Assembly (NCBI GenBank): GCA_041659245.1
Contig: JBAZYQ010000001.1
Span: 4,912 to 68,911 of the forward strand
From: Candidatus Nanoarchaeia archaeon
GTDB lineage: Archaea; Nanobdellota; Nanobdellia; SCGC-AAA011-G17; GW2011-AR17
Length of the DNA stretch: 64,000 bases
Direction: 5' to 3'
Positions 12,877 to 55,535 of this stretch are shown here, one piece after another. The translations under genes and the position numbers were made by a program. The number at the start of each line of letters is the position of its first letter. Positions within the stretch are counted from its first letter, which is position 1. A model generated the notes under the pieces. It worked only from the letters and a program-made list of their open reading frames with translations, searched no databases and was not told the origin of the DNA.

Positions 12877-12995
12877 TAGGAACTGAAAGTGTGTTTCATA
12901 TTTAAATAGTTTCGGGATAATAGTGGCAAACATTTAGTAATATATAATTTAAAATCAAATAGCCTTAGAGGATCAAAACATAATAACTCTTTTAT

Positions 12996-15105: not shown

Positions 15106-15600
15106 TTACTGCTTTGTAAATTGTAAAAACTGAAAAAGGAATAAAGGATAATATAGGCTTTCGCTCATTATAAAAGGGGCAAATGCTAGATTTGAAGGCA
15201 ATACTGATACAACAACAGCCGTAAGAAATGCTGATTTATCCTCAAGAAATTCTTTTGCAAGAAGCCATGCGGGAATTATTATTAGTGAAGATAATAGTGC
15301 ATTAAGAAATTTCATAAAAATGTAAACATATTGCATATCCTTAAATTTATATGAAATTGAGATTAGAATGGGGTAAAGCGGAGGAAATTGCGCAGAAGGC
15401 ACACCATGTTCTGTAAATTCCTGGTCAAAATAGAAGCTCCTTGCTATTTTTGCATATGAATCTTCATCGCTATATCCTGATATTGTGGGCACAAATGAGG
15501 AAAACACAACTTTTACAATAACCAATGCTAGAAAAATCAACAAAAGCCGTTTTGTATACATTTTCATTAGACTTAAATCAGTTATACTTTTTATAAACAT
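15106..15600 (-). CDS. GT-C (PMT/ArnT-like) glycosyltransferase, N-terminal portion
   Basis: TM1, then YSDEDSYAKIARSF: the DE/DxD first-loop motif of the PMT/ArnT/AglB GT-C families. Confidence 0.55.
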   Translation of the reverse strand: MFIKSITDLSLMKMYTKRLLLIFLALVIVKVVFSSFVPTISGYSDEDSYAKIARSFYFDQEFTEHGVPSAQFPPLYPILISISYKFKDMQYVYIFMKFLNALLSSLIIIPAWLLAKEFLEDKSAFLTAVVVSVLPSNLAFAPFIMSESLYYPLFLFQFLQFTKQ

Positions 15601-19439: not shown

Positions 19440-20867
19440 ATGAATCTATGCTTTGTAAACTTAAATGATAATGGGGGAACGGTTTATCCCTTGGGTATTT
19501 TATCTTTAATGACTTATTTAAAACAATATTCTGAATTTCCTTTGGAAATGAGCCTTGCAGATGCGAATTTTGATATGGATCTAATGGATAAAATAATATG
19601 CTCAAAACCGGATGTGGTTGGCATAAGTGCTATGACTGTGGAATACGGTCAGGCGATAGAATTTGCTAAAGAATTGAAGAAAAGACTAAATATTCCAATA
19701 ATCTTAGGCGGTGTACATATATCTACATTGCCATTATCATTACATGCTTCTTTTGATATAGGTGTTATAGGCGAAGGAGAAGAAACCCTCCTGGAAATCC
19801 TTAAGCTATATGCTCAAAAGAAAACTTTTTTGCCAGATGATTTACGAGCAATAAAAGGGCTCATTTTTCATAATAATGGCGAAAAATGCATGACAGAACC
19901 AAGGGCATTTTTGGACCTTGATAAGATTCCGATAGGGGACAGGTCTTTGCTTAATCAAAAATATTTTAAACCAAGAATAATGCACACGGGCAAATTTAGT
20001 GTTTTTGATTCGATATTCACAACGCGAGGATGCCCTTATAATTGCAGATTTTGTTCTTCAAGTTCTTTCTGGAAAAAAGTAAGATACCATTCCCCCCAAC
20101 ACGTTGTAAATGAAATTAAATATTTATATGATATACATAAGATAAAATTCATAGCCATTATCGATGATCTTTTTATTGCTGATAGGAATAGAATCAAAGA
20201 AATAATCTCCCTTTTAAAACATGAAGACTTACTTGGAAAAATAACTTTTAGTTGCTATGCAAGAGTAAATTTAGTGGATGATGACTTATGCAGATTATTA
20301 AAAGAAATGAATGTAGTTCTGGTTGGATTTGGTTTTGAGAGTGGCAGTGATAGGATGCTAAAATGGCTGAAAAAAGATAATTCATTGTCAGCAGAAAAAA
20401 ATAGAAAAGCTGCAAAAATGTGCAAGGATTATGGGCTGATGGTAGAGGGATATTTATTATTCGGTTCTCCGGGAGAAACTATTGATGACATGAATCAAAC
20501 CGTGGATTTAATAGATTATTTCATTAAGATAAAATTGGACAATCTGGGGCTTTTTGTGCTTACTCCTTTTCCGGCGACAGAAATATGGGAAATTGCAAAA
20601 CAAAGGGGCAAGGTTAATGATTGTAAAATGGACTGGGCCTTACTTTCTCTTACCCGAGATGAACCACTCCTATTGGATGACAGCATAAGCAAGGAACAAT
20701 TTATGCAAGTTTTTTTAAAAGCGAGAAAAAAATTAAGATATTTTATATGGAAAAAAATTATGAGAGACTTGAAAAATGGCAATATGCTGCTTATGATAAA
20801 AACTGCAATCAAAAATCCAAAACGTTTGACTAACCTTTTGTTTAATGGACCTATCGACTCTGAATAG
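19440..20867 (+). CDS. Cobalamin-binding (class B) radical SAM enzyme, subfamily 2
   Basis: B12-binding-like N-terminus (PLGILSLMTYL…VVGISAMT…ILGGVH); TRGCPYNCRFCSSSS CxxxCxxC. Confidence 0.85.
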   Translation: MNLCFVNLNDNGGTVYPLGILSLMTYLKQYSEFPLEMSLADANFDMDLMDKIICSKPDVVGISAMTVEYGQAIEFAKELKKRLNIPIILGGVHISTLPLSLHASFDIGVIGEGEETLLEILKLYAQKKTFLPDDLRAIKGLIFHNNGEKCMTEPRAFLDLDKIPIGDRSLLNQKYFKPRIMHTGKFSVFDSIFTTRGCPYNCRFCSSSSFWKKVRYHSPQHVVNEIKYLYDIHKIKFIAIIDDLFIADRNRIKEIISLLKHEDLLGKITFSCYARVNLVDDDLCRLLKEMNVVLVGFGFESGSDRMLKWLKKDNSLSAEKNRKAAKMCKDYGLMVEGYLLFGSPGETIDDMNQTVDLIDYFIKIKLDNLGLFVLTPFPATEIWEIAKQRGKVNDCKMDWALLSLTRDEPLLLDDSISKEQFMQVFLKARKKLRYFIWKKIMRDLKNGNMLLMIKTAIKNPKRLTNLLFNGPIDSE

Positions 20868-20923: not shown

Positions 20924-22435
20924 GTGCCTAATTGTATGACAGAGCAGGCAATACTGAATAAAATATCCAAAGGCGCAACTCTACTTTTAATAGGGATGGT
21001 TATTTCCAAGGTATTTTCATACATTTATAGGGTTATTATTGCCCGTTATTTGGGAGCAGATGTATATGGATTATTCAGTATTGGATTAGCGGTTATAGGC
21101 ATCTTAGTTAGTCTCTCACTTGTCGGGCTCCCTCAGGGAATATTGAGGTATGTATCTTATTATAGCGGGAAACGCGATGAAAAATCCATTCATGCAATAA
21201 TAAATAATGCTTTTAAGATTATAATCCCCCTCTCGCTATTATTTACATTGTTGCTTTTTATTTTTGCCAAATGGATTTCTCTTTATTTTTTCCATGACCC
21301 TTCCCTGGTTAACATGCTGAAATTAATGTCTTTTGCAATACCTCTTACTGTAATCGCAATAGGCATAGAATACTCATTCCAGGCATTTCAAAAAATAAAC
21401 TATATAGTTATAGCTAAAACTATTGTGGGACCTGTCTCAAAAGTAACAATTTCACTCATAGTACTAATTATGGGCTACAAGCTTATGGGCATAGCTTTTG
21501 CTTATATCTTCTCGCTATTTATTTCCGCTTTATTGATGGCATATTTTCTTAAAAAGATAGTTTCTTTTAGGAAAATAGCCTTAGCGCCGCCTATTTTTTA
21601 CAAGCAATTATTATATTTTTCACTTCCATTAATGTTTTCGGAATTATTTATTTCGCTTTTGACTTGGAGCGATACATTAATTTTAGGGTATTTTGTTCCT
21701 GCTGTACAAGTAGGTATATATAATGCTGCAGTACCTACTGCATATCTTATTTTTACAATACCCGTTGCATTAATAACTTTATTTATGCCAACAATAAGCG
21801 GTATGTATGCAAGGAAAGAGGATTTTAGCAATCTCTATGATACTATAAATAAATGGATGTTTTTGGTTGGTGTGCCTTCTGTGTTGGTTTTAGGATTATA
21901 TTCCAAACAGATACTTTCAATATTATTTGGTAAAATATTCGTTGAAGGCTATTTTGTATTAATTCTGATTGCAATAAGCTTCTTTATATATTCTCTCATG
22001 CTTACATCAGAATCAATACTTATTATAATGAAAAAGACAAAATTAATATTGTTCAATAGTTTTTTAACAGTTTTGCTAAATATTATTATGAACCTGTTGC
22101 TTATACCCAAATATGGGCTTATGGGGGCGGCAATTGCAACTGCTTCTGCATTTTTATTGACGAGTATTCTTGTTGCGATAGAAACATATTATCTCACAAA
22201 ATTGTTCCCGTTAAAATTAGGCTATATCAAGTGTATAATCTCTGCTGCTATACCTTTTACTCTTATAGTTTATCTTAATACTTACATAAATACCCATGTG
22301 CTATTTGGGCTCATCTTTTTGGCTTTAATATATCTTGTGTTGTATATAATACTATTAAGGCTTACACATGCTTTAGGCGCAGAGGAAATAAGTCTTATCA
22401 AAAGTGCATGGCAAAAGGTCAAGACTAAATTTTAA
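20924..22435 (+). CDS. Polysaccharide biosynthesis protein / oligosaccharide flippase (Wzx, MOP superfamily-like)
   Basis: ~12-14 TM, 503 aa; layout and N-terminal KGATLLLIGMVISKVFSYIYRVIIARYLG typical of Wzx-like flippases. Confidence 0.7.
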   Translation: MPNCMTEQAILNKISKGATLLLIGMVISKVFSYIYRVIIARYLGADVYGLFSIGLAVIGILVSLSLVGLPQGILRYVSYYSGKRDEKSIHAIINNAFKIIIPLSLLFTLLLFIFAKWISLYFFHDPSLVNMLKLMSFAIPLTVIAIGIEYSFQAFQKINYIVIAKTIVGPVSKVTISLIVLIMGYKLMGIAFAYIFSLFISALLMAYFLKKIVSFRKIALAPPIFYKQLLYFSLPLMFSELFISLLTWSDTLILGYFVPAVQVGIYNAAVPTAYLIFTIPVALITLFMPTISGMYARKEDFSNLYDTINKWMFLVGVPSVLVLGLYSKQILSILFGKIFVEGYFVLILIAISFFIYSLMLTSESILIIMKKTKLILFNSFLTVLLNIIMNLLLIPKYGLMGAAIATASAFLLTSILVAIETYYLTKLFPLKLGYIKCIISAAIPFTLIVYLNTYINTHVLFGLIFLALIYLVLYIILLRLTHALGAEEISLIKSAWQKVKTKF

Positions 22436-22487
22436 TGATTTAGGACAATATAGATATATTTTTAAATGCTTAGTCTTATTTAATTCT

Positions 22488-24011
22488 ATGCCAAATATAA
22501 AAAAACACATAGTACTATACAATCCTCAGCAGGAAGAAGGCAAAACAAAGATTGACATATCACTTGCGCTGTTAAGCATTGCTGCTATCCCTTATGAAGA
22601 AGGTTATAAGATACATTACGTTAACAATTCAGATTCAAATGCGCTGGAAAAAGCAATTGATTATTCTAGGGGTTCCCTTTGTGTTGCTTTTAGTGTCATG
22701 ACGGGGTATCAGATTAAGGATGCATTAAAAGTAAGCAGGGCTATTAAGAATAAGTATCCTGAAGTCAAGATTGTCTGGGGCGGGTGGCATCCTTCAATAT
22801 TGCCTGAACAGACGATACAGAATGAACTCATAGATCTAATTGCAGTGGGGCAGGGCCAGCGAACATTTGCTGAGCTTGTTAGGGCGCTGGATAAGAATCA
22901 GCCTCTTGAAAAAGTAAAGGGAATCCTGTATAAGCAGGATGGTAAAATAAAGAAGACAGAGCCAAGAACATTTGAAGACATAAATAATTTTCCACCTCTT
23001 CCCTATGGCCTAATAGACGGAAAAGGATTCATAAGGAATGTTGATGAGGTAGCAACAAGAATTATTGACTATTTTACCAGTCAGGGTTGTCCTCATAGAT
23101 GCAGATTTTGCGCAGACCCTTTAGTTTACAAGCATCGCACAACAATGCTGAAACCGGAACGAATTATAACTGACATTGAACATTTGATAAATGATTATGG
23201 AATAAACGGCGTAATCTGTACTGATACTAACTTCTTTATTGATGAGAAGAGGGTAAGAGAGATATGTAAATCATTGATTGAAAATGGGATAAAGATTTCA
23301 TGGGGAAGCATGAATGGCAGGACAGAACATTTATTAAGGCTTTCAGATGATACATGGAAATTGCTGAAGGAATGTAATTTTTCCAGTTTTCTTGTTGGAG
23401 CCGAGTCAGGAAGCGATGAAAGTCTGAGATTCATACAAAAAGATGCGACAGTAAAAGATACCTTGGAACTTGCAAAAAAATGCAAGCAGTACGGGTTTAA
23501 AGCCTATTATTCTTTCATGCTTGGACTGCCTCCAAATCCGGATTTAATGGAGCCTTATTCTCTGCAGATTAAAAAAGACTGGAAGGCTCTTATTAAAATA
23601 ACAAAAGATATACTTTCAATAAGTAAAGACAATATGTTTTATTTTCTTATCTATACACCTTATCCTGGGACCCCCTTTTACGAGCTATGCAAGAAAAATG
23701 GGCTTAAAGAGCCAGGTAGCCTTGAACAATGGGGGGATTTTACTCTAGACAGGGTTAAGACTCCATGGATGCCAAGAGAATATGTATCTTTGCTCGAACA
23801 AATGAACATGCTCTTTATTCCATTCTTGACTGGAAGTATTTATGTTAAGCTAGGGAAATATGGGCTGCTTGGTAAGGCTGTGAAGATAGCCTTTCTTCCA
23901 CTGCACGGACTGGTAATGTTAAGATGGAAGTTTGAATTCTTTTCACTGCCAGTTGAATACAAACTTATGAAACTGGCAAGAAAAATAGCGCGAAAAATCA
24001 GTTCGATATGA
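22488..24011 (+). CDS. Cobalamin-binding (class B) radical SAM enzyme, subfamily 2
   Basis: MPNIKKHIVLYNPQ… B12-binding-like N-terminus; TSQGCPHRCRFCAD CxxxCxxC. Start moved to the ATG at 22488 (the track extends to 22404, overlapping the upstream gene). Confidence 0.85.
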   Translation: MPNIKKHIVLYNPQQEEGKTKIDISLALLSIAAIPYEEGYKIHYVNNSDSNALEKAIDYSRGSLCVAFSVMTGYQIKDALKVSRAIKNKYPEVKIVWGGWHPSILPEQTIQNELIDLIAVGQGQRTFAELVRALDKNQPLEKVKGILYKQDGKIKKTEPRTFEDINNFPPLPYGLIDGKGFIRNVDEVATRIIDYFTSQGCPHRCRFCADPLVYKHRTTMLKPERIITDIEHLINDYGINGVICTDTNFFIDEKRVREICKSLIENGIKISWGSMNGRTEHLLRLSDDTWKLLKECNFSSFLVGAESGSDESLRFIQKDATVKDTLELAKKCKQYGFKAYYSFMLGLPPNPDLMEPYSLQIKKDWKALIKITKDILSISKDNMFYFLIYTPYPGTPFYELCKKNGLKEPGSLEQWGDFTLDRVKTPWMPREYVSLLEQMNMLFIPFLTGSIYVKLGKYGLLGKAVKIAFLPLHGLVMLRWKFEFFSLPVEYKLMKLARKIARKISSI

Positions 24012-24877: not shown

Positions 24878-25975
24878 CTATCTGTTTATTATTTTGCTGC
24901 AGATTCCTTCAATTTCTTTTTCTGTCAAATTAACAGACGAAGGCAGGTAAAGCCCTTTTATTGATAATTCTATTGAAACCGGATAATCTTTAGAATTATA
25001 CTTATCTTTTGGCAGATAGGGCTGTTTATGCAAAGGCCAGAAAAAGAATCTGGTGTCTACGCCTTTTTCATATAATTCTTTTTTAAGCTCATCTCTTGTT
25101 ATGCCAAAATCATCTTCAATCAAGATGCCGTACATCCAATAGACATTTCTAACATCACTTAGTTCAGGCGGCGTTATTATGCCTTTTACTTTGCTTAAGT
25201 ATTTATTGTAAGTTTTTGCAATCTGTCTTTTTTTTGCTATTGTCTCTTCAATTCTTTCCAGCTGTGCCAATCCTATTGCTGCCTGAATATTGGTGAGCCT
25301 GAAATTATATCCTATTTCCGCATGTATATGCCTTCTTTCCTTGTCAAAAGCAAGGTTGTGCAGCCATCTTGCTCTCTCTGCCAGCGCCTTGTCATTTGTG
25401 ACAATCATTCCGCCTTCACCTGTTGTTATTATCTTATTGGCATAAAAGCTAAAACAGCCAATATTTCCGAAACTTCCCACTTTTTTCCCTTTATATTCTG
25501 CACCGTGAGCTTCTGCGCAGTCTTCTATTACCTTCAGATTATGCTTTTTAGCAATTCCCATTATGCTGTCCATCTCGCAGGGGTGTCCGTATATGTGAAC
25601 GACCATTATTGCTTTTGTTCTGTTTGTTATTTTTCCTTCAATTCTTTTTGGGTCAATGTTCCATGTTTCTCTACACGAGTCTATAAATACCGGCTCTGCT
25701 CCTACATACTGAATTGCAAAGAGGCAGGAAGCCATTGTGAAATCAGAGACAATAACTTCATCTCCTTTTTTTATATTAAGCGCAAGAAGAGCCAGATGCA
25801 ATGCTGTTGTGCCATTTGTGGTGGCAACGCCGTATTTTACCCCGCAATATTCAGCAAATGATTCTTCAAATCGTGCATTATATTTGCCGTTATAAGAAAT
25901 CCATTTATCTTTTAAGCAATCTTTTACATATTCTGCTTCTTTTTCGCCTATTTCCGGCTCAAACACGGGAATCAT
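24878..25975 (-). CDS. DegT/DnrJ/EryC1/StrS-family PLP-dependent sugar aminotransferase
   Basis: MIPVFEPEIGEKE…TNGTTALHLAL N-terminus. Lys-containing block KIITTGEGG. Confidence 0.85.
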   Translation of the reverse strand: MIPVFEPEIGEKEAEYVKDCLKDKWISYNGKYNARFEESFAEYCGVKYGVATTNGTTALHLALLALNIKKGDEVIVSDFTMASCLFAIQYVGAEPVFIDSCRETWNIDPKRIEGKITNRTKAIMVVHIYGHPCEMDSIMGIAKKHNLKVIEDCAEAHGAEYKGKKVGSFGNIGCFSFYANKIITTGEGGMIVTNDKALAERARWLHNLAFDKERRHIHAEIGYNFRLTNIQAAIGLAQLERIEETIAKKRQIAKTYNKYLSKVKGIITPPELSDVRNVYWMYGILIEDDFGITRDELKKELYEKGVDTRFFFWPLHKQPYLPKDKYNSKDYPVSIELSIKGLYLPSSVNLTEKEIEGICSKIINR

Positions 25976-26367
25976 TTTGTTATGTCTACTCTGATTACAT
26001 CTTTTTCATACCCATTGTCTGTCCTTGAGAAGTCATGGAAATCTAGAAACTCAAAATCTTCCAAGGCAATTATCGTATGAATCACTTTTGGCGGTATGCT
26101 AATGAAATCCCCTTCTTTTATTATGTTCTTTTCTGTTTTTGCATTGGGATCTTCCGAATCCTTGCTTAGGAATTCAGCTTTTCCTTTTAATACATAATTG
26201 AACTGTTTCGCCTTGTTGTGGTAATGGTTTCCCCTTACAGCTCCTTTTTTTGAGGTTATCAGCCCAATATGCAATATATTTTCATCATCCAGAATATCAT
26301 GGATAGCTCCGCGCTGGTCTTCAAATGCCGGTTTTATATGCTTTATGCTTATTTTTTTGTTTTCCAT
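25972..26367 (-). CDS. Cupin-fold sugar 3,4-ketoisomerase-like protein (FdtA/WxcM C-terminal domain-like)
   Basis: 131-aa cupin with RGNHYH…VIHTI His-rich metal/active-site motifs. Stop overlaps the aminotransferase start by 4 bp. Confidence 0.55.
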   Translation of the reverse strand: MENKKISIKHIKPAFEDQRGAIHDILDDENILHIGLITSKKGAVRGNHYHNKAKQFNYVLKGKAEFLSKDSEDPNAKTEKNIIKEGDFISIPPKVIHTIIALEDFEFLDFHDFSRTDNGYEKDVIRVDITK

Positions 26368-26371
26368 AGTT

Positions 26372-27607
26372 TCACTCCAGTATTTTTGGTTTTGGTATTG
26401 GTATTATGAACTTGCAGCCGTTTTTTCTGTGAGCTTCAAGGTTCTTTATTATTTCTTCAGCAAAGTTCCAAGGCAGGATTATTCCATAATCCGGCTTGTC
26501 TTCAAGTATTTTTTGGTCAGGATATATCGCAAGATGCAATCCTGGGCTGAATCTTCCAATTTTTAATGTTGATTTTTCTGTCAGATACTCAATAATTCCG
26601 TTGTTAAGCGCACAATAATTAAGCATGGTATTGCCTTTTGCAGGCGCCCCTATTCCCACTATTTTTTTACCCTGTTTCTTAAGCTCGATCAGTATAGATA
26701 CCAGCTCTAATCTTTGTTTCCTGACTTCTTCTGCAACTTTATTCAGCTTTTCAAGTGAGTACACTTTTGCTTCCTCTTCCAGATTGACCAGCTCATTAAC
26801 AATATGGGCTATTTCTCGCTTTCCTTTTCTTCCAATGAAAACTCTGATTGAACCCCCGTGTATTCCTGAGCGGTAAACATCAAAAATTTCCATTCCAAAT
26901 TTATTGAAAAAAGGGATGAGCGGCTTTATCGAGAGATATGACAAATGTTGGTGATATATTGTGTCGTACTCATTGTTTTCAACCAGATTAATAAGATAAG
27001 GAGATTCAAAAATAAATACGCCATCATCTGTAAGGAGCAAATCAATTGCTTTCATAATATCATCAAGGTCATCTATATGCGCAAAGACATTTGTTCCGGT
27101 TATTGCATGGGCTTTGCCTCTTTCTGTTAATATTTTTGCTGCTAATTTTTCAGTAAACAGGCTGCAAATTGTTTCTATGCCTCTGTCATTTGCAATTTTT
27201 GCAACAATAGGTGCAGGATCAACCCCCAGTACTTTCATTCCATTGCTTTTGAATCCTTCCAGCAATACGCCCACATTGCTTCCAATATCCACCAGAAATG
27301 AGCCTCTTTTAAGGCCTATTTTTTGGCAGATGGAATTTGCCATTTCAGAATAATGCACCTTGCCTGTTTCAGTTATAGAAGATTCATACATATATTCGCC
27401 CTGATAAAGAACCTTGGGCGGGACAACATAATCTAGCTGATGAAACCCGCAATTAAGGCAGATTTGCACCCTTAACGGATAAAATGCCTCTTCCTCATTT
27501 AATTCTTCTTTTCTCAGAAAATGATCAGAATGCGGGTGAAAACCCAAATCCAGATAGGTTTTAAGTTTCTTTCCCTTGCATAAACGACATTCTGTTTTTA
27601 GTGGCAT
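26372..27607 (-). CDS. NDP-hexose C-methyltransferase-like (TylC3 family: Zn-ribbon + class I MTase + C-MT C-terminal domain)
   Basis: N-terminal CRLCKG…CLNCGFHQL zinc ribbon, central LVDIGSNVGVLL motif I, ~130-aa C-terminal extension; 411 aa. Confidence 0.65.
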   Translation of the reverse strand: MPLKTECRLCKGKKLKTYLDLGFHPHSDHFLRKEELNEEEAFYPLRVQICLNCGFHQLDYVVPPKVLYQGEYMYESSITETGKVHYSEMANSICQKIGLKRGSFLVDIGSNVGVLLEGFKSNGMKVLGVDPAPIVAKIANDRGIETICSLFTEKLAAKILTERGKAHAITGTNVFAHIDDLDDIMKAIDLLLTDDGVFIFESPYLINLVENNEYDTIYHQHLSYLSIKPLIPFFNKFGMEIFDVYRSGIHGGSIRVFIGRKGKREIAHIVNELVNLEEEAKVYSLEKLNKVAEEVRKQRLELVSILIELKKQGKKIVGIGAPAKGNTMLNYCALNNGIIEYLTEKSTLKIGRFSPGLHLAIYPDQKILEDKPDYGIILPWNFAEEIIKNLEAHRKNGCKFIIPIPKPKILE

Positions 27608-27676
27608 TACGTCTAAACTGTTTTTTGTTTATTAATAAGCTTTATGGATATCGTGCCGCTATACAGTCCTATAAGC

Positions 27677-28462
27677 CTACAGCTTTGTTTTAGGCTTTTT
27701 AACAATGCATAGAATAGAAACGCCAAAAGGCAGATTAATCCTTTTTAAAACATTTGATTCAAGCAAAAAAATTGATTTGAAGAATTTATTAACAAATGGT
27801 GAAATATTGTCTATATCTGAAGAGACGGGCTTATTCTTATTTATCAAATTATCTATTTTTCTCATTACAAATACAAATGGAAATAAGAATGTATTGAAAT
27901 AAGAAGATTTTTTTATAATAAATCCGCAGTCACTCAATTTTCTGCATATCTCTTTCTTTGTATATCTTTCTCTTACATGGGCTGCAATATCGTGCCTACT
28001 ATGCATTGCAGGGCATGCTGCATCAGTCAAAATCAACAAGCCGTCCGGCTTTAATACCCTATATATTTCTCTTATTGCTTCGTTATCATCCTTAATCTGC
28101 TTATGATACAAAACATCAAGGCAGGTTACAATGTCAAAAAATTCGGATTTAAACGGCATTTTTATTACAGAACCCTTAAACAAATTCTTAAGCCCTCTCG
28201 CTTTGCAAAATTTAAGGGCCGCAGGCATTATGTCAAGTCCGTAAGTGTCATATCCTCTTGATTTTAAATCATAAAGCACCATGCCTGTGCCGCATCCGAC
28301 ATCAAGAAGCTTTAATCCTTTGCTGTTTTTGGGCAGGTTGTCATTTACTATTTTGCGCTTTACAATAAACCACCAATAGGCTTTTTCGAGTTTATACATT
28401 TTTTCATATTCCTGTAATTCCATTTTAGTTGCGCGCCTCGCTGGTTTTATTTTTAAAAACAA
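27677..28462 (-). CDS. Class I SAM-dependent methyltransferase
   Basis: LLDVGCGTGMVLYDL motif I, LILTD motif. Likely true start near 28423 (MELQEYEKMY). Confidence 0.75.
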   Translation of the reverse strand: MFLKIKPARRATKMELQEYEKMYKLEKAYWWFIVKRKIVNDNLPKNSKGLKLLDVGCGTGMVLYDLKSRGYDTYGLDIMPAALKFCKARGLKNLFKGSVIKMPFKSEFFDIVTCLDVLYHKQIKDDNEAIREIYRVLKPDGLLILTDAACPAMHSRHDIAAHVRERYTKKEICRKLSDCGFIIKKSSYFNTFLFPFVFVMRKIDNLINKNKPVSSDIDNISPFVNKFFKSIFLLESNVLKRINLPFGVSILCIVKKPKTKL

Positions 28463-28471
28463 TTAAATAGA

Positions 28472-29191
28472 TTATTTATTTGGTCTGAATCTTAATCTTA
28501 TGATTGTTGTCCCTAAATTCCATGCATGCCCTATAAGGGTTTTAAATGAGTCTGCTGTCTTGGTTTCACCGAGAACTCTGTCATAGGTAATGTAAGGGAT
28601 ATCTTTTATCTTGAATCCCATTTTATAAGCTTCATATAGGAACTGTATGCAATATTCTGCATAATTGCCTTTTAAGTTTATATGTTTGAATACGTCCTTT
28701 TTTACTGCAACAAATCCGGTTGTATAATCTGTAATCTTGGGTGTGAGCAGCAGCATTGCAAATTGATTTATTGCCCAGCTGTATGCAATTCTTGGTATTG
28801 TTCTTGTATCTTTTCCGCCTTTAATATATCTTGATGCAGCGGCAATATCATATCCTTCATTAATTATTACGTTCAAGAGTTTAGGTAATAAATGAGGCGG
28901 ATGAGATAAATCGCAATCCATCCAGACAACTATTTCGCCTTTGGCTTCGTGTATGCCCCTTTGAATTGCGGTTACAAGCCCCCTTTCCTTGGTTCTTTTA
29001 ATAACGCGCACATTTGGTTTGTCGAGCTTCTCAACCGTTCTTGCTGTACCGTCAGGGGAATTATCATCAACAACTATTATCTCAAAAGGTAGTTTTACGT
29101 AATGTTCTATTTCTTTTATAACCAGGGGTACATTTTCGGTTTCATTGTAAGTGGGCAAAATAACAGAAACTTTAATTTGTTTGGGATTCAT
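28472..29191 (-). CDS. GT2 polyprenol-phosphate sugar synthase (Dpm1/ArnC/GtrB-like)
   Basis: VSVILPTYNETENV…IVVDDNSPDGT…DCDLSH. Confidence 0.85.
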   Translation of the reverse strand: MNPKQIKVSVILPTYNETENVPLVIKEIEHYVKLPFEIIVVDDNSPDGTARTVEKLDKPNVRVIKRTKERGLVTAIQRGIHEAKGEIVVWMDCDLSHPPHLLPKLLNVIINEGYDIAAASRYIKGGKDTRTIPRIAYSWAINQFAMLLLTPKITDYTTGFVAVKKDVFKHINLKGNYAEYCIQFLYEAYKMGFKIKDIPYITYDRVLGETKTADSFKTLIGHAWNLGTTIIRLRFRPNK

Positions 29192-29344: not shown

Positions 29345-30832
29345 TTAAGCCGTTGTCAGAAGACAGGTGTCATTTCGTTTTCCTTTGGCTTTAAGCCCAC
29401 ATTTTTGCAGATTAGTACAAGATTCCTTATAGCTTACTATCTCTGTTACATTCAGTTTTTTAAGAACATTTAATAAACCGGTGCAATTGTTATTGTTAAA
29501 TGTGTCTGCTGCAGCAACAAGTAATTCTTGCTTTTCAATAGATACTTCATGGGTTGTCCAACCATTGGCAGTTGAAAGATTTAAGTAAATTGCGCCATAA
29601 GAATAGAATGCTCTTAAATAAGCATCTTTTGGCGGAACACCCAAGAATAAGTAAGTACCTTTAATTTGAGGCAATAATAGCATTATATCTTTAGCCAAAG
29701 GGCTATTTTCTTTGAAATAGGGAGTATGAATATGGGATAATGTAACACTTACAACAGGGAAGATTATTAAAATACCTAAAATGCCATACTTCATTAATCT
29801 ATTGATTCTATTTACGTCTATATTGAATAGGAAATAAATAATGCACATCAAAAATAGTAATAGGAATGAGTCGACATAAACTTGGTTTAAATAAGGAATA
29901 AATATCACTAGTTTTGTTATAAGCAAAACTGCCATTAAAATTACAGGCAGGAAAAAAAACTTAGTTTTATAGTTTTGTTCAGTTGATTTCCAGTATATGT
30001 AAAAGAGGAATATTAATGCAATAGATATAATAACGGCAGCTATGTTTGTCCATGCCCATTCGCTTCTAAAACTTAATGACTCACTAGTTAATGCATACTC
30101 GTATATCGTACTTTGGCTATAATCTTTCAAAAAAGGATACCACCAAAACGATGTTAATATTACTGTTATAATCGAGGATATTAATATTTTTATCTTTTCT
30201 TTGCTTATGAGAACAAAAGAAGCGAGCATGATGCCCGCCAATAATGTTTCCTGGGGGTGAGATAATATCATTATTGCAAATATAGGGATAAATAAGAGAT
30301 AGAATTTATTATCTATTTTGTGGTTTATGTACCATAAAATAATGCCTAAAAATGGAATAAAAAATACCCATGCGAAAAAATGCGGATAAGAACCAAGCCT
30401 TATAAAATTGCCTATACTTATCGGGTTTCCAAAGAATAATGCAAAAAAAGCAATTCTTTTAATTATGCTCCATTGCAGATATTTTCCGATTATGGCTATA
30501 AATATGGCAGATAAGAGATATAATACTATCATTGAAATATAAGATGCAATCTGTACATTTTTTGTAATCCAATATAATGGCAATGTAAAGAAAAACCAGC
30601 CAGGTGAATAAAACTTAAGCACTACTAGTCCCCCATACCATTCCGGAGCAATATTATGGAATCCATATTTAGCTAAAAAATGCAGCAATGTCATAAAACA
30701 ACTTGCATCATTAGCATAATCAAAAGGGAAAATAGTCATTATCTTTGCTTGGTCTATTAACCTGAAGATAATATAACTTATTAAAATTATAATAATCGGA
30801 TAAAAATATTTATCTTCAATGGTTTTTGGCAT
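29345..30832 (-). CDS. Polytopic membrane protein, GT-C-like glycosyltransferase candidate
   Basis: ~13 TM. Acidic first-loop motif FDYANDASCFMTLLHF, analogous to the DxDS motifs of AglB and the 15106..15600 fragment. Cys-rich C-terminal extracytoplasmic tail. Confidence 0.5.
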   Translation of the reverse strand: MPKTIEDKYFYPIIIILISYIIFRLIDQAKIMTIFPFDYANDASCFMTLLHFLAKYGFHNIAPEWYGGLVVLKFYSPGWFFFTLPLYWITKNVQIASYISMIVLYLLSAIFIAIIGKYLQWSIIKRIAFFALFFGNPISIGNFIRLGSYPHFFAWVFFIPFLGIILWYINHKIDNKFYLLFIPIFAIMILSHPQETLLAGIMLASFVLISKEKIKILISSIITVILTSFWWYPFLKDYSQSTIYEYALTSESLSFRSEWAWTNIAAVIISIALIFLFYIYWKSTEQNYKTKFFFLPVILMAVLLITKLVIFIPYLNQVYVDSFLLLFLMCIIYFLFNIDVNRINRLMKYGILGILIIFPVVSVTLSHIHTPYFKENSPLAKDIMLLLPQIKGTYLFLGVPPKDAYLRAFYSYGAIYLNLSTANGWTTHEVSIEKQELLVAAADTFNNNNCTGLLNVLKKLNVTEIVSYKESCTNLQKCGLKAKGKRNDTCLLTTA

Positions 30833-30956: not shown

Positions 30957-33668
30957 TTAACGCTTAATCTTATCTATTTCAGGATCAGGTAGTTCATCTT
31001 TATAGTATTCCGGCGGTATCTTTAGACCTTCGGGATAATCTACTTTCCATATCTTTGTAGGTCCTATAAGCCTTCCTTGGTATAAAGCAAGAGGCATTCC
31101 CGTATTCTCATCTGAATAAGCCAGTTTTATGTAAGGCCAGTCTTGGTTAAGCAGGTAAAGCTTTGCAAACAAGCCTTTATACACTTCAGGCGAGAGATAT
31201 AAGGCTGCACCCAAGGGGTTAGCTTGTCCATTGGATTCGATTGTAGGGATTATCCTTAAGCATCCTTCGAGCATATCTTTGCCTGGGAATATATATTCTT
31301 GCCCATTCAGGTAAACACATTTTAATGGCACTTTTATTTGCTGTGCATTATATACGATAACTGCTTCAGGCTGCATAATCTTCTGAGCTATTTTTGTTCC
31401 ATTTGCATCTTTAACTTCAATATTCTGTATAGGCAGAAATACTCCTGCAACTCCTGCGGCATTAGCAGGAAAGAGTTTTCCCTGATAAATAAAGTCATCA
31501 TCCAGCGGCGTTCCGCCTGCAAACAAGTATACTATTTCTTCTCTTGTTTCCCTTATCTGGTCAGGCTGCATAACCATCGTTGAAATCCATGAATATCGGT
31601 CATAATTCCTGTCTGCACCTATCGATGAATAAGCAGGATATTTGCCTATTTCATCACTGATTATAAGCAAGTATGAAACATTTTTTGATTTCATAAATTC
31701 CAATGCTTCTGTCTCATTTTGCCCAGTAAGGATATGTCTTCCAACAAAGTAGTTTATTGCTCCAAAAGCATTTCCTCCATCGCTTATAGTGGCTCTATTG
31801 GCACCCCATTGAACCCAATAGCCATAATCCCACCAATGAGCAAAGACAGCATCTTCAGGAGTGTTATCTTTAGCCCATGACATGGCATTTTGCCATTGCT
31901 GGTTAAAGCTGGGGCCCACATAGCTTGCTTGGGCGCTTACATTTTTATAAAATCCCCAGAATGTTAATCCCACCACTAAAGCAATTAAAATAAATGCAGT
32001 TATCTTATATGCCTCTTTTTTGAGCTTTTTGGCCCGTTCAAATAATTCAATAGCGCAATATCCTGCAAGAACTGCCGTTACAGGCGCAAAAATGAACAGC
32101 AGTCTTATTGCGCTTCTTGCTGCAATTATCATGATTATAAACCAGATAATCATTAAGGGAATCATTATATCTATATTTAAAACGCTTTCATTGGCTTCTT
32201 TGTTTTTGTAAATATATTTTATATATCCATATCCTAATATGCCAAAGAAAACAATCAGTGAACCAATATAAACTATCTGGGATATTGGTGTTTCACCATT
32301 GAATGTTGATGAAGCGGAGTATCTGCTCATGCTGAATAGCAGTATGAATAATGCAAATGCGCCGGTAAGTATCCAAATATTCTTTTTTTGAATGGTCTTA
32401 ATCTTGCTTATTAAAACATAAAACATCAATATGGCGCCTGCAAAAAACAGCCACATATACAATGGTCCGAAAAAAGCTTCAAGGCTGCTGCCGCTTGAGA
32501 ACTGTCCTATCCAATCTGTAAAATAAGGCTGATGATTTTCTGCAACTGTCACCTGCCATCTGCTTGTTGCGAATGGGCTGGTTATTTGTTCATATACTTC
32601 GCGAAAAACATTTTCAATTACAGTATGCCCTTCTGTCAATAATAAGAAACCTACCCCTAACCCTATAGTTATAAGTAAAGCAAAGAATCCTAGTGGCATT
32701 TTAGCTTCAACTTTTTTTGTGAATGTGCTTAGTTTATTAACATTTAATATTATCCAGACTAATGATACCAAGAAGCCTATTAACATAACTTGAGATGTTA
32801 AGGAATTAGTAAAAGCGATAAAAGGGAATCTTGCCGGATAAAATAAATGTGCAAAAAGTATTAGCAATATCATCCAGATTGTATAGGCATAGAACTGATG
32901 CCTTTTGAATATACCCACCAGATTGCAAATTATGGTATGTACGCCTAAAGCTAGCATTATAAATATGTATCCACCCCATACGGCTGCTAATAGCCCTGAT
33001 AATATTCCTGCTAACGCTGCAAAAGGTATAAATTTTTGTGGTTTTTCTTCTTTTAATGCTGATACATAAAAATAAAGCGCTGCAAACATCAATGCAACAG
33101 CAAGGGCTTCCTTATCTGCCACTCCTGCCATTGTCCTGTAAAGGAATGCAGGCACTACTACAAGGAATGCTGTTGATATGATGGCAACCTTATGGTTAAA
33201 CATCTTTTTTACAAACAAGAAGAAAAATATTGCTGCTATGAAAAATGAGATTACAGGGTATAATATGGCTGCGTTAACCGTTGTTGCGTTTGGATTGAAT
33301 ATTTGCAGTATTTTTTGCAGATATGCAATGCAATTGGATAATATTCCAAATTCCCCCCGTGGATCAAAGCCAAAAGGATAATAACGTAATATATCATTTG
33401 CCATAATCTTGCCATGCACTGCAATATATTCTGCATATCTCAGAAAAGCATAGCTGTCAACATCAGGAAGCCATTTCCCTTGTAATAATGGCAGATTAAG
33501 AGTTCTTATGTAATATCCTAACCAAGCTATAATTACCATAATAATATAGATAATCCAATCTTTTTTTTGTTTAAATCTGCCTAAAAAGGCATCTTTTCTT
33601 TCTTGAAGCTCTTTTGTTATAGAATCAGAAGTACTTTGGGGTTCTTCTTTTAAGTCATAGTCTGTCAT
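30957..33668 (-). CDS. aglB: Archaeal oligosaccharyltransferase AglB (STT3 family)
   Basis: Signature WWDYGYW motif (AHWWDYGYWVQ). First-loop DVDSYAFLRY DxD motif. 13 TM plus a large C-terminal domain; 903 aa. Confidence 0.92.
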   Translation of the reverse strand: MTDYDLKEEPQSTSDSITKELQERKDAFLGRFKQKKDWIIYIIMVIIAWLGYYIRTLNLPLLQGKWLPDVDSYAFLRYAEYIAVHGKIMANDILRYYPFGFDPRGEFGILSNCIAYLQKILQIFNPNATTVNAAILYPVISFFIAAIFFFLFVKKMFNHKVAIISTAFLVVVPAFLYRTMAGVADKEALAVALMFAALYFYVSALKEEKPQKFIPFAALAGILSGLLAAVWGGYIFIMLALGVHTIICNLVGIFKRHQFYAYTIWMILLILFAHLFYPARFPFIAFTNSLTSQVMLIGFLVSLVWIILNVNKLSTFTKKVEAKMPLGFFALLITIGLGVGFLLLTEGHTVIENVFREVYEQITSPFATSRWQVTVAENHQPYFTDWIGQFSSGSSLEAFFGPLYMWLFFAGAILMFYVLISKIKTIQKKNIWILTGAFALFILLFSMSRYSASSTFNGETPISQIVYIGSLIVFFGILGYGYIKYIYKNKEANESVLNIDIMIPLMIIWFIIMIIAARSAIRLLFIFAPVTAVLAGYCAIELFERAKKLKKEAYKITAFILIALVVGLTFWGFYKNVSAQASYVGPSFNQQWQNAMSWAKDNTPEDAVFAHWWDYGYWVQWGANRATISDGGNAFGAINYFVGRHILTGQNETEALEFMKSKNVSYLLIISDEIGKYPAYSSIGADRNYDRYSWISTMVMQPDQIRETREEIVYLFAGGTPLDDDFIYQGKLFPANAAGVAGVFLPIQNIEVKDANGTKIAQKIMQPEAVIVYNAQQIKVPLKCVYLNGQEYIFPGKDMLEGCLRIIPTIESNGQANPLGAALYLSPEVYKGLFAKLYLLNQDWPYIKLAYSDENTGMPLALYQGRLIGPTKIWKVDYPEGLKIPPEYYKDELPDPEIDKIKR

Positions 33669-34554: not shown

Positions 34555-36090
34555 ATGAAAATAGTATTAATCTCAACTTCAACTTATCCTTCTGACCAGG
34601 GACTGCGGACAATCTCCTCATGTCTTAAGAGGGAAGGCTATGATGTTAAGATGGTTTTCATGCCAATGGCGGAGGATTATTCACTTGAATATTCAAAATC
34701 AGTTCTTGGACAGCTTAAAGAAATATGCAAGGATGCAAGGCTGATTGGGATTTCTGCTTATGCTTCAACTTCAGTAAGGGCTGAACAGCTTATAAATTAT
34801 TTAAAACAGCTTAATGTGCCTATTGTATGGGGCGGGCCTCATGCAACAATTTCTCCTGATATGTGCATAAAGCAGTGCGATATTGTCTGCAGGGGCGAGG
34901 GTGAATATGCAATGCTTGAGCTTGCAAAGAGGGTGAAAGAAGGCAAGGATTATTCTGATGTTCCAAACCTGTGGGTTAGGAAAGGCGATGAAATAATCAA
35001 GAATGAAATAAGCAATATGCCTGACTGCCTTGACTGCTTTGCTCCTCCGGACTATGACTTGGAAGACCATTACCTGCTTGAAGGAAACAAGCTTGTTCCA
35101 TTCAGGGAAAAGCACCTTAACGGCATGATATTCTTCATGACAACAAGGGGCTGCCCGAATGCGTGCGCCTACTGCTGCAATCATCTTTACAGGCAATTGT
35201 ATCACGGGCACGGCAAATTATTAAGAAGTTACAGCATAGATTATGTAATCAAAGAGCTTCAAAGGCTAAGGGACAAATTTCCTTCGGTTGGCGTATTTGA
35301 CATTCGCGATGAAACATTTTTTGCAAGGCCGCTTTCAGAAATAAAGGAATTTGCAGAAAGATACCAAAAAGAAGTAGGTGTAAGGTGGAAGTGCCTTGCA
35401 GATCCAACAACGATGAGCGAGGAAAAGCTTCAGCTGCTTGTTGACGCAGGGCTTACTGACATAATCATCGGAATACAGTCAGGTTCTGACAGGATAAACC
35501 TGGAGATTTATAAGAGATTCATCAAGAGAGAGCAGGTTTTGAAGGCTGCAAAGATTGCAAATAAGTTTAAGGGAAAGCTCGCAGTGATGTATGACATAAT
35601 AACAACAAATCCTTATGAGAATCCTGAGGATGTTTTGGATTCAATAAACCTGCTGCGCGAGATACCAAAGCCATATTTCCTGTCTGTGAATAATCTTGTT
35701 TTCTTTCTTGGAACTCCACTTTATGAAAAGGCAATTGCAGACGGCATTATAAAATCAAAAAAAGACTCTGCCTCTCATTTGAATTATTGGGACAGGTGGA
35801 ACCACATAAAACTGAAGAAGAAGAATGCCTACCTTAATCTCATATTAAATCTGATGAGGGGGCCTGTCACAGACAAGAGATATGGGATAATACCTGCTCC
35901 TTTGCTGAATAAGCTGATATCCAAGAAAGCAGTTGATTATAACCTGAAGCATAATATTCCTACATATACTGCAGGGCAGTTTGTGCAGGCTGGGGATTAT
36001 TTCAGGGAGCACGTTGCAAAGCCGCTTTACAGGAACATGCTTCCGACTTCTGTCAAGGTATGGTATGATAAGGTTAGATATAGGGTATAG
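34555..36090 (+). CDS. Cobalamin-binding (class B) radical SAM enzyme, subfamily 1
   Basis: MKIVLISTST…LIGISAYAS…VWGGPH B12-binding-like N-terminus; TRGCPNACAYCCNH CxxxCxxC. Shares KEGKDYS / NLWV / CCNHLYRQLY blocks with 7345..8793. Confidence 0.85.
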   Translation: MKIVLISTSTYPSDQGLRTISSCLKREGYDVKMVFMPMAEDYSLEYSKSVLGQLKEICKDARLIGISAYASTSVRAEQLINYLKQLNVPIVWGGPHATISPDMCIKQCDIVCRGEGEYAMLELAKRVKEGKDYSDVPNLWVRKGDEIIKNEISNMPDCLDCFAPPDYDLEDHYLLEGNKLVPFREKHLNGMIFFMTTRGCPNACAYCCNHLYRQLYHGHGKLLRSYSIDYVIKELQRLRDKFPSVGVFDIRDETFFARPLSEIKEFAERYQKEVGVRWKCLADPTTMSEEKLQLLVDAGLTDIIIGIQSGSDRINLEIYKRFIKREQVLKAAKIANKFKGKLAVMYDIITTNPYENPEDVLDSINLLREIPKPYFLSVNNLVFFLGTPLYEKAIADGIIKSKKDSASHLNYWDRWNHIKLKKKNAYLNLILNLMRGPVTDKRYGIIPAPLLNKLISKKAVDYNLKHNIPTYTAGQFVQAGDYFREHVAKPLYRNMLPTSVKVWYDKVRYRV

Positions 36091-41094: not shown

Positions 41095-42087
41095 ATGCCC
41101 AAAACAGCACTCATCACAGGAATAACAGGACAGGACGGCTCTTATCTTGCTGAATTCTTACTGGGCAAAGGATACACTGTTTACGGATTAATAAGGCGCT
41201 CTTCAACAGAAACCACAGGCAGGATACAGCATTTAGTTGATTCAGGAAAAATTCAATTGATAGGCGGAGATATAATAGACCATCTTTCATTAATACAGGC
41301 TGTGCAAAAATCGGGCGCAGACGAGGTTTACAATCTTGCTGCAATGTCTTATGTGAAAGCTTCTTGGGATCATCCTGTTGCGACTGCTGATTACACAGGT
41401 ATAAGCGTCACCAAGATGCTTGAAGCAATAAGAACCATCAATCCAAAGATAAAATTCTACCAGGCATCAAGCAGCGAAATGTTCGGCAAGGTGCAGGCAG
41501 TGCCGCAAAATGAAAAAACTCCTTTCTATCCAAGAAGCCCTTACGGAATTGCAAAGCTTTTCGGGCACTGGACAACTGTGAATTACAGGGAAAGTTACAA
41601 TATATTTGCGTGCAGCGGAATACTATTTAATCATGAATCCCCAAGAAGGGGAATGGAATTTGTAACAAGAAAGATATCCCATAATGTCGCTAAAATAAAA
41701 TTAGGGCTTTCAAACGGTTTTAGCCTTGGCAATATGGATGCAAAAAGAGACTGGGGTTTTGCAGGGGATTATGTTAAGGCAATGTGGCTTATGCTTCAGC
41801 AGGACAAGCCGGAGGATTATGTTATTGCAACAGGCGAAACGCATTCTGTCCGCGAATTCGTGGATGCTGCTTTTTCGCACGTAGGCATAACAGACTGGGA
41901 AAAGTATGTCAAGGTTGATGCAAGGTATATGAGGCCTGCAGAAGTTGAGCTGTTGGTAGGAGATGCCTCAAAAGCAAGGGATGTGCTTGGCTGGAAGCCT
42001 GATGTTTCATTCAAGGAACTTGTTGCCATGATGGTTGATTCTGACTTAAGGTTGTTGAAAAATGAGAGTTCTAATAACAGGAATTGA
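41095..42087 (+). CDS. gmd: GDP-mannose 4,6-dehydratase
   Basis: [20 protein letters not shown]-terminus, YxxxK (YGIAK), characteristic Gmd blocks ([22 protein letters not shown]); 330 aa. Confidence 0.9.

Positions 42088-54059: not shown

Positions 54060-55535
<1,476 letters not shown>

Follow-up and report, generated by a model that had tools for sequence, protein, structure and literature searches.

Amino sugars with a C-methyl branch are known mainly from actinomycete antibiotics and from a few bacterial lipopolysaccharides. In the pathways to mycarose, epivancosamine and noviose, a C-methyltransferase and a cupin epimerase act before a final enzyme resolves the 4-ketone, and the stereocentre-inverting role is played by the cupins TylK, EvaD and NovW, respectively. 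Kansosamine, from the lipooligosaccharide of Mycobacterium kansasii, and sibirosamine, from sibiromycin, are 4-amino-4,6-dideoxy-3-C-methylhexoses that carry O- or N-methyl groups. For sugars linked to guanosine diphosphate (GDP), a route to virenose has been proposed in silico for Coxiella burnetii, consisting of Gmd, a TylC3-like methyltransferase and an Fcl-like epimerase/reductase (PMC3539893), and no GDP-sugar 3,4-ketoisomerase is known (PMC8944477). Among the many unusual sugars that a 2024 review gives for archaeal N-glycans there is no C-methyl sugar (PMC11407970). Here we describe a locus in a Candidatus Nanoarchaeia archaeon (assembly GCA_041659245.1, contig JBAZYQ010000001.1) in which genes for a sugar C-methyltransferase (C-MT), a small cupin and a perosamine-synthase-like aminotransferase lie side by side. 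The locus was analysed within a stretch of 64,000 nucleotides, positions 4,912 to 68,911 of the forward strand, which we refer to as the window (Table 1).

An original prediction, made from the letters of the window, had read these three genes, together with a fourth for a class I methyltransferase and with a distant gmd gene, as the enzyme set for a GDP-linked 3-amino-3,6-dideoxy sugar of the mycosamine or perosamine type with a C-methyl branch. The comparisons described here uphold the enzyme set, support the GDP linkage and make the 3-amino (mycosamine) part of the reading less likely. We modestly favour a route, deduced from protein similarities and gene order, in which Gmd, C-methylation, epimerisation by the cupin and transamination at C-4 would yield a GDP-4-amino-4,6-dideoxy-C-methylhexose of the kansosamine/sibirosamine type.

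There are three enzymes at the core of the cassette. The first is, by its architecture and full-length similarity, a sugar C-methyltransferase of the TylC3/TcaB9/MtmC type. It contains the Pfam domains Methyltransf_13 (73.5 bits) and Methyltransf_14 (169.7 bits) on either side of a class I S-adenosylmethionine (SAM) core (55 bits), all above their thresholds, and it aligns from end to end with the structures 4RV9, 5T64 and 3NDI. Its full-length matches are to solved sugar 3-C-methyltransferases, with E-values of 4.7e-93 for MtmC (4RV9), 1.3e-70 for KijD1 and approximately e-67 for TcaB9. The Zn-ribbon cysteines are C7, C10, C50 and C53, and the CxxC...CxxC pattern recurs in 105 of the 120 closest homologs; the SAM motif reads VDIGSNVG and is accompanied by the motif YDTIYHQH, in which the final His is conserved. 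Of the Y-x-E-H active-site motif, the Tyr (Y218) and the His (H221) are present, with Gln220 at the Glu position; in TcaB9 this His is the proposed base. Matches at E<=1e-30 number 6099 among 8000 scored candidates, which makes the C-MT family very large, and it includes four proteins of 545–558 aa in which a C-MT is fused to a C-terminal domain plainly homologous to the window cupin. The TylC3-type Zn-ribbon enzyme of the original prediction is therefore confirmed at the domain level, and its solved full-length relatives are sugar enzymes rather than non-sugar methyltransferases. All characterised relatives methylate a carbon beside a 4-ketone, with C-3 being the site in all of those that have been solved, and by analogy C-3 is the most likely position for the methyl group here and C-5 the less likely one.

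The second enzyme is the cupin, which we assign with confidence to the nucleotide-sugar cupins, within which it belongs to a family of its own, nearly always found together with a C-MT. It probably acts, as judged from its closest sequence relatives, as a metal-dependent epimerase of a 4-keto sugar. The other role to be considered is that of a GDP-sugar 3,4-ketoisomerase, which would move the ketone to C-3 and lead to a 3-amino-3,6-dideoxy (mycosamine-type) sugar, with the C-methyl group placed on C-5 beforehand or on C-2 or C-4 afterwards; we consider this rather unlikely. There are several relevant features. First, the cupin exceeds the Pfam threshold for Polysacc_synt_C (PF14667; 39.3 bits against 28.7, residues 16–104) and also matches Cupin_2 and Cupin_1. 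It falls short of the threshold for FdtA (PF05523; 17.5 bits against 23), to which residues 39–74 only are aligned, although that weak match does span the motif region and several members of the cupin family carry PF05523. There is no Pfam match to the RmlC-type PF00908, a family of approximately 180–200 aa compared to the 131 aa of the window cupin. Second, the profile of the cupin family matches the Cap5F cupin (residues 246–357) best among PDB sequences (4e-10), followed by an RmlC-like protein of Sulfolobus (3e-7, a weak match), QdtA (6e-6) and FdtA (1.6e-5), which puts the epimerase cupin of CapF some 10^4-fold ahead of QdtA and FdtA in similarity. The C-terminal cupin of CapF is also the best full-length sequence relative of the family, one member of which (P0202) matches it at 1e-10. 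Third, the window cupin and CapF share the pattern [KR]GNH[WY]H...(E/Q)...H, which takes the form KGNHWH...E...H in CapF. Conservation among 45 homologs of the cupin is complete at D17, R19, G20, G42, R45, H48, H50, G62 and H97 and almost complete at N47, Q55 and Y120. Finally, the CapF cupin domain needs Zn to epimerise a 4-keto sugar (PMC5393024).

The predicted fold speaks more evenly. The AlphaFold2 model of the cupin is very confident (pLDDT 95.5), and Foldseek finds both ketoisomerases and epimerases with it at template modelling (TM) scores of 0.67–0.81. Many of the top matches are 3,4-ketoisomerases (QdtA, FdtA, FdtD, WlaRA and WlaRB, TM 0.70–0.76), and these score about equally with RmlC-like proteins, ChmJ, EvaD, StrM and CapF. 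Matches to oxalate decarboxylases were set aside as functionally uninformative; they are confined to the metal-motif core (residues 31–103) and inflated by the two domains of these bicupins. A search of a plasmid collection with the cupin gave no match, and hence no annotated copy on a Rhizobium plasmid. Profile, fold and CapF motif thus agree that this is a nucleotide-sugar cupin and not an unrelated small one, and its earlier description as FdtA-like holds at the level of the superfamily and no further, since the FdtA threshold is missed and the CapF epimerase cupin is the closest relative in sequence.

The third enzyme is a pyridoxal phosphate (PLP)-dependent aminotransferase of the DegT family, as had been predicted (DegT_DnrJ_EryC1, 425 bits). 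Its best solved relative is the Caulobacter GDP-perosamine synthase Per (3BN1; 4e-99, 44.8% identity over 357 columns), and Lys181 aligns with the catalytic Lys of Per, which is Ala in the mutant chain 3DR4. The seven top NCBIfam matches are all sugar PLP enzymes, the first five of which have names that refer to C-4 chemistry; none of the seven reaches its cut-off. We dropped similarity as a proof of C-4 amination, because the synthases of GDP-perosamine (C-4) and of GDP-mycosamine (C-3) may share 69–73% identity and have no diagnostic motif, so that the site of amination is not readable from the sequence (PMC8944477).

Conservation of the cassette in other genomes was examined by a scan with the cupin profile in which each species was represented by a single genome, and which gave 80 loci from many phyla; a C-MT was scored within 1.5 kb of the cupin and Gmd within 8 kb. 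A C-MT is present at 68 of the 80 loci, and 24 loci have both a C-MT and an aminotransferase of the window type, with a Gmd ortholog in range in five of the 24; other loci have the arrangements Gmd-C-MT-cupin or Gmd-cupin-aminotransferase. There are three types of cassette. Type A, that of the window, is [Gmd]-C-MT-cupin-aminotransferase; type B has two short-chain dehydrogenase/reductase (SDR) genes followed by C-MT and cupin, and occurs in Patescibacteria; type C, the form present in Omnitrophota, Planctomycetota and actinomycetes, is cupin-C-MT-SDR. Across these variants the C-MT keeps its pairing with the cupin and the third partner varies, being either an aminotransferase or an Fcl/RmlD-like SDR. 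Type A is carried by three cultured rhizobia (Rhizobium phaseoli, R. redzepovicii and R. bangladeshense), and is found in a Halobacteriota single-cell genome and in metagenome-assembled genomes (MAGs) of Pelagibacter, Pseudomonadota and Parcubacteria, the Pseudomonadota MAG having the nearest named cassette outside archaea. A Flavobacteriales MAG has the same genes in another order, and its aminotransferase is less closely related (194 bits). The two closest archaeal relatives, L092 and L093, have the triad together with Gmd. Identities in L092 are 71% for C-MT, 74% for the aminotransferase and 62% for Gmd. In L093 (archaeon GW2011_AR3) they are 57%, 58% and 53%, respectively, and the triad and Gmd are present along with orthologs of two further genes of the window unit, a family 2 glycosyltransferase (GT2; 43%) and the class I methyltransferase (50%), the latter next to a gene for a membrane glycosyltransferase of the GT-C fold. 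The cassette is therefore widespread in uncultured archaea and bacteria and is not a one-off. The original description of C-branched aminodeoxysugars as typical of actinomycete antibiotics proves too narrow, given the occurrence of the cassette in DPANN archaea, Candidate Phyla Radiation (CPR)/Patescibacteria, Rhizobium, Pelagibacter and others.

Several of these loci have further features of their own. On four archaeal contigs with STT3 (L002–L005), genes for a NUDIX hydrolase and for an RfbT-like methyltransferase come after the C-MT-cupin fusion gene, and the locus further contains an Fcl-like SDR as well as another C-MT that is more distantly related. In R. redzepovicii (L024), R. phaseoli (L028) and R. 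bangladeshense (L038) a nucleotidyltransferase (NTP-transferase), an SDR and a second C-methyltransferase are located approximately 4 kb downstream of the cassette; we know of no C-methyl amino sugar from the lipopolysaccharide of these rhizobia. A Rhizomicrobium sp. MAG (L036) represents a natural version lacking the C-MT, with Gmd, cupin and aminotransferase in succession. The Streptomyces homologs were considered as a possible characterised actinomycete cluster with this cupin and rejected; they form an isolated SDR-cupin-C-MT trio next to genes for a family 3 glycoside hydrolase (GH3) and a major facilitator superfamily (MFS) transporter, and there is no polyketide or glycosyltransferase context around the trio.

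The substrate of the cassette is presumed to come from Gmd. This protein scores 459.3 bits against the NCBIfam model TIGR01472 (equivalog cut-off 415) and is the sole dehydratase in the window above a curated cut-off; RmlA, RmlB and UDP-GlcNAc 4,6-dehydratase are all lacking from the window. Gmd orthologs directly flank the C-MT-cupin-aminotransferase triad in the two archaeal loci noted above and in the bacterial loci L011, L040, L046, L047 and L055. Taken together, the single dehydratase above its cut-off, the lack of RmlA and RmlB and the Gmd orthologs beside the cassette elsewhere mean that a GDP-linked route is well supported by the gene content, as had been proposed from the gmd gene, and that a route linked to deoxythymidine diphosphate (dTDP) or uridine diphosphate (UDP) is unlikely. 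The window also contains a set of GDP-heptose-type genes, encoding GmhA-, GmhB- and HddA-like proteins and a guanylyltransferase-like NTP-transferase, in which a Gmd/LegB-like SDR is embedded; all of these score below or near the NCBIfam cut-offs. It is conceivable that the cassette acts on a GDP-6-deoxy-4-keto-heptose made by these enzymes, giving a C-methyl amino-deoxyheptose. However, the cassette is flanked elsewhere by a true Gmd ortholog (53–62% identity or at least 300 bits) and not by a heptose-pathway gene, and in the window the heptose genes lie more than 20 kb away, such that we regard this substrate as highly improbable. Heptose could be a further constituent of the glycan.

The route that we favour would proceed as follows. 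Gmd would use GDP-mannose to make GDP-4-keto-6-deoxy-D-mannose, and the C-MT would place a methyl group from SAM on a carbon beside the ketone, most likely C-3. The cupin would then invert a stereocentre beside the ketone, using a His/His/Gln/His site that resembles the Zn site of CapF, and the aminotransferase would convert the 4-ketone to an amine. The GT2 enzyme would load the sugar on dolichyl phosphate, and the GT-C protein would transfer it, outside the membrane, to a glycan, which AglB links to protein either afterwards or beforehand. An N- or O-methyl group may be contributed by the class I methyltransferase. We favour this order because relatives of the C-MT act beside a 4-ketone, because a cupin epimerase partners them, and because the third partner in the cassettes varies. 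The partner SDRs in cassettes without an aminotransferase best match the 4-ketoreductases Fcl and RmlD, which fits a ketone that stays at C-4 and is a point against ketoisomerisation. Other points against it are the order C-MT then cupin, seen both in the genes and in the fusions, and the chemistry: a quaternary, methylated C-3 rules out conventional 3,4-ketoisomerisation, so that the C-MT would have to show a regiochemistry without example among its solved relatives. The 3-amino product is thus the less likely one, since it presupposes a C-MT that works on a 3-keto sugar or methylates C-5. What speaks for a ketoisomerase, in addition to the fold matches, is that a cupin of about 130 aa matches FdtA and QdtA in size, that its RGxHxH motif and third His presumably correspond in position to those of FdtA, that the cupin and aminotransferase genes overlap by 4 nt as in pairs of the FdtA/FdtB type, and that in Rhizomicrobium the cupin and aminotransferase follow Gmd with no C-MT between them. 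Related aminotransferases also lie beside cupins matching the FdtA model in two sister DPANN loci (L090 and L091).

A number of observations weigh against the C-4 route as set out here. In the C-MT, Gln220 takes the place of the Glu of MtmC and of the KijD1/TcaB9 group; HQH is found in 29 of its 120 closest homologs (73 have HEH). Its sequence does not decide between C-3 and C-5 as the methylated carbon. The fold search with the cupin does not split isomerases from epimerases, and its size and RGxHxH motif fit 3,4-ketoisomerases too. The identity of the aminotransferase to Per does not fix the amination site given how similar C-3 and C-4 synthases can be, and in sister locus L090 an ortholog of it (54%) adjoins a cupin that does match Pfam FdtA. 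Gmd is 13 kb from the cassette and on the opposite strand, and its end is overlapped by 26 nt by an SDR gene that probably encodes an Rmd-/Fcl-like GDP-4-keto-6-deoxymannose reductase. That enzyme probably uses the Gmd product for a plain 6-deoxyhexose, in which case Gmd would feed both sugars. Lastly, gene neighbourhood is the only tie between the sugar genes and the GT2, GT-C and AglB genes.

The class I methyltransferase, the fourth gene of the original operon, was correctly recognised as such (Methyltransf_11, 82.5 bits), and its start is probably the ATG at 28423, not the TTG at 28462, as indicated by the public gene call and by the lengths of its orthologs (246–249 aa). Its proposed role as an N- or O-methyltransferase of this sugar is less secure, as its relatives travel with GT2 and GT-C genes, including in cassettes without an aminotransferase. 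Orthologs that are 50–55% identical lie beside GT-C genes in L090 and L093, and the former retains the methyltransferase without any C-MT. More distant relatives (109–147 bits to the window protein, compared to 24–35 bits for the methyltransferases placed after the aminotransferase in type A cassettes) lie beside GT2 genes in L007/L009, L015, L022 and L048, the last three of which have no aminotransferase. The gene, to judge from these associations, belongs to the GT2/GT-C part of the unit. It is thus quite possible, if short of probable, that the enzyme leaves the sugar nucleotide unmodified and serves a GT2/GT-C delivery module, acting for example on the lipid-linked or transferred sugar, with the sugar operon then comprising three genes. 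Consistent with this are the gap of 69 nt that separates it from the C-MT gene, whereas the genes for aminotransferase, cupin and C-MT abut or overlap (a 4-nt overlap and a 4-nt gap, respectively), and its matches in the PDB, which are generic methyltransferases only: there are no sugar N-methyltransferases of the TylM1/DesVI type among the 25 at E<=1e-5. Modification of the sugar itself is favoured, on the other hand, by the other class I methyltransferases that come after the aminotransferase in the bacterial cassettes L006, L007, L011 and L047 and by the lack of any N-acyltransferase found in the window to cap the amine, such that N-methylation would make sense.

The genes that continue the run beyond the class I methyltransferase would serve delivery. 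The GT2 protein (Glycos_transf_2, 126.6 bits) has as its best NCBIfam match a dolichyl-phosphate hexose transferase (87.6 bits), followed by the undecaprenyl phosphate-4-deoxy-4-formamido-L-arabinose (Und-P-Ara4FN) transferase ArnC, both below cut-off, and its orthologs adjoin the aminotransferase or the cassette (58% identity in L090 and, as noted, L093). The 495-aa membrane protein has a GT-C fold according to its AlphaFold2 model (pLDDT 93.5), for which the Foldseek top matches are the DPY19 C-mannosyltransferase, STT3, AftD, AglB, ArnT and PglB (E-values 4e-7 to 5e-3). D42, the conserved acidic residue of the first external loop, is invariant in 38 homologs, some of which carry PF10131. 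AglB is recognised by Pfam as STT3 (76.3 bits) and STT3-PglB_core (35.1 bits) and, at 120 bits and so below the cut-off, by the NCBIfam model archaeo_STT3. An ortholog of the GT-C protein occurs at three further DPANN loci, with a GT2 of approximately 235 aa, small cupins, B12-binding radical SAM genes and STT3, and with a DegT aminotransferase in two of the three. The gene neighbourhood suggests that the finished sugar is delivered via dolichyl phosphate to an extracytoplasmic glycan.

The four genes described above are co-directional on the minus strand, as predicted. They would make up the nucleotide-sugar portion of a glycosylation unit of seven co-directional genes, the genome being that of a DPANN archaeon (Nanoarchaeia). 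The limits first given for the operon, 24878–28462, are right at the left edge; the right edge overshoots the methyltransferase start by about 39 nt, and the unit continues past it through the GT2 and 495-aa membrane protein genes to aglB. That the window is archaeal is apparent from its 16S and 23S rRNA genes; a tRNA gene in the spacer between these is ordinary for archaea. The GC content of the window is approximately 35% and that of the 24–28 kb region is 0.36, the same as the remainder, which gives no argument for a recent horizontal transfer of the cassette.

Table 1. Coordinates of the genes discussed, numbered from the first nucleotide of the window.
Feature	Coordinates	Strand	Length or remark
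DegT-family PLP aminotransferase, GDP-perosamine-synthase-like	24878-25975	-	365 aa
Nucleotide-sugar cupin	25972-26367	-	131 aa
TylC3/TcaB9/MtmC-type NDP-hexose C-methyltransferase	26372-27607	-	411 aa
Class I SAM methyltransferase	27677-28423	-	248 aa from ATG 28423; open reading frame to TTG 28462, 261 aa
GT2 glycosyltransferase, polyprenyl-phosphate sugar synthase-like (DPM1/AglD/ArnC type)	28472-29191	-	239 aa
GT-C-fold membrane glycosyltransferase (from predicted fold)	29345-30832	-	495 aa, no Pfam match
AglB/STT3 oligosaccharyltransferase	30957-33668	-	903 aa; first gene of the co-directional run
GDP-mannose 4,6-dehydratase (Gmd)	41095-42087	+	TIGR01472 gmd
SDR, probable GDP-4-keto-6-deoxymannose reductase	42062-42976	+	
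HddA-like kinase	44182-45204	+	
NTP-transferase, guanylyltransferase-like	48912-49622	-	
GmhA-like protein	49619-50218	-	
SDR, Gmd/LegB-like	50197-51141	-	
GmhB-like protein	51138-51701	-	
B12-binding radical SAM protein	7345-8793	+	
B12-binding radical SAM protein	11437-12933	-	
B12-binding radical SAM protein	19440-20867	+	
B12-binding radical SAM protein	22404-24011	+	
B12-binding radical SAM protein	34555-36090	+	
B12-binding radical SAM protein	38739-40154	-	
GtrA-like/epimerase/phosphatase fusion	4414-7338	+	974 aa
GT-C-like membrane protein	9449-11314	-	621 aa, DUF6798
GT-C-like membrane protein	36877-38691	+	604 aa, weak PMT match
STT3 N-terminal part	15106-15600	-	164 aa
16S rRNA	54058-55534		
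tRNA	55605-55676	+	
23S rRNA	55923-58853		

The surroundings of the unit are unusual in other respects. There are six genes for B12-binding radical SAM proteins in the window and at least six class I methyltransferases in the same glycosylation island (at 18217, 24109, 27677, 33771 and 36100, and others), and sister DPANN loci are likewise rich in B12-radical-SAM genes, with up to four beside the GT-C ortholog (L091). This enrichment suggests heavy, possibly radical, methylation of the surface glycans, and may perhaps be more unusual than the sugar cassette itself. The 974-aa protein near the left end of the window combines two GtrA-like transmembrane domains with a ribulose-phosphate 3-epimerase and a histidine phosphatase, an odd fusion for a glycan locus. 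Two other GT-C-like membrane proteins are encoded in the window, and the 164-aa open reading frame, which matches the N-terminal part of STT3 only, is possibly a fragment.

The sugar made by the cassette is probably destined for the cell-surface glycans of the archaeon. If so, it would provide archaeal glycans with their first C-branched sugar, and the remark in the original prediction that such a sugar would be remarkable there is in keeping with the 2024 review, in which no C-methyl sugar appears (PMC11407970). The cassette has a wide distribution in two episymbiotic and uncultured groups, the DPANN archaea and the CPR bacteria, and it is also present in cultured Rhizobium. C-methyl amino sugars may be a common and overlooked component of microbial surfaces and, in DPANN archaea, perhaps part of the surface that contacts the host. 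We propose more tentatively that the cupin belongs to a family that partners, and is sometimes fused to, sugar C-methyltransferases, serving as a metal-dependent epimerase for C-methylated GDP-4-ketosugars or as a GDP-4-keto-6-deoxymannose 3,4-ketoisomerase, and that the cassette sugar reaches the surfaces of DPANN and CPR organisms via dolichyl- or polyprenyl-phosphate. The cupin is in this respect a candidate for isomerisation or epimerisation of GDP-4-ketosugars, a step without a known enzyme on the mycosamine route. The presence of the cassette in R. phaseoli and its relatives makes the chemistry testable in a cultured organism.

The superfamily of every enzyme in the cassette is already known, and the proposal for virenose in Coxiella is an earlier case of a GDP-linked route with C-methylation (PMC3539893); a literature search for kansosamine and sibirosamine genes, for the PDB entries 7B0M and 7B0D and for GDP-linked C-methyltransferase-plus-cupin systems found nothing specific. 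What is new is the conserved cassette shared across domains, a cupin family tied or fused to C-methyltransferases, and the position of the cassette next to AglB in DPANN archaea. Several known systems provide informative comparisons. First, the mycarose (TylC3/TylK/TylC2), epivancosamine (EvaC/EvaD/EvaE) and noviose (NovW/NovU/NovS) pathways likewise combine a TylC3-family C-methyltransferase with a cupin epimerase on a nucleoside diphosphate (NDP)-4-keto-6-deoxyhexose. However, those sugars are dTDP-linked, compared to the GDP linkage inferred here, the final step is catalysed by a reductase rather than an aminotransferase, the cupins are of the RmlC family (PF00908, approximately 200 aa) rather than CapF-like and 131 aa long, and the products are actinomycete secondary metabolites, not components of a cell-surface glycan. 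Second, the cupin has its best sequence relative in the C-terminal domain of CapF/WbjC, a UDP-4-keto-6-deoxy-N-acetylhexosamine (HexNAc) epimerase, with which it shares PF14667, the [KR]GNH[WY]H motif, the E/Q position and the distal His; that domain shares one polypeptide with an SDR reductase and has a UDP-HexNAc derivative as its substrate, whereas the window cupin stands alone and has relatives fused to C-MT. The dTDP-sugar 3,4-ketoisomerases FdtA, QdtA and WlaRA have the same fold, size and RGxHxH motif, but the window cupin is below the FdtA threshold and its E-values to them (6e-6 to 1.6e-5) are weaker than to CapF. Third, the ArnB/ArnC/ArnT pathway for 4-amino-4-deoxy-L-arabinose (L-Ara4N) and the Haloferax AglD/AglS system show the same succession, in that an aminotransferase or sugar pathway is followed first by a GT2 synthase of polyprenyl-phosphate sugar and then by an extracytoplasmic GT-C enzyme; they differ from the window in that its proteins score below the family cut-offs and it has no formyl- or acyltransferase.

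Fourth, virenose in Coxiella is a GDP-mannose-derived 3-C-methyl-6-deoxyhexose of a cell-surface glycan, and the archaeal fusion locus L002 follows the logic of the same trio, with an Fcl-like SDR of 245 bits; the virenose pathway, which is itself predicted only in silico, introduces no amino group and includes no separate cupin. Kansosamine and sibirosamine represent the type of sugar predicted by the window enzyme set, and the likeness is drawn by sugar type and not by gene sequence, both being actinobacterial and presumed dTDP-linked. Finally, the GDP-perosamine pathway (Gmd and Per/RfbE) is matched by a Gmd above its cut-off and by an aminotransferase with the catalytic Lys and substantial identity to Caulobacter Per, and differs in that the window adds a C-methyltransferase and a cupin between the dehydratase and the aminotransferase.

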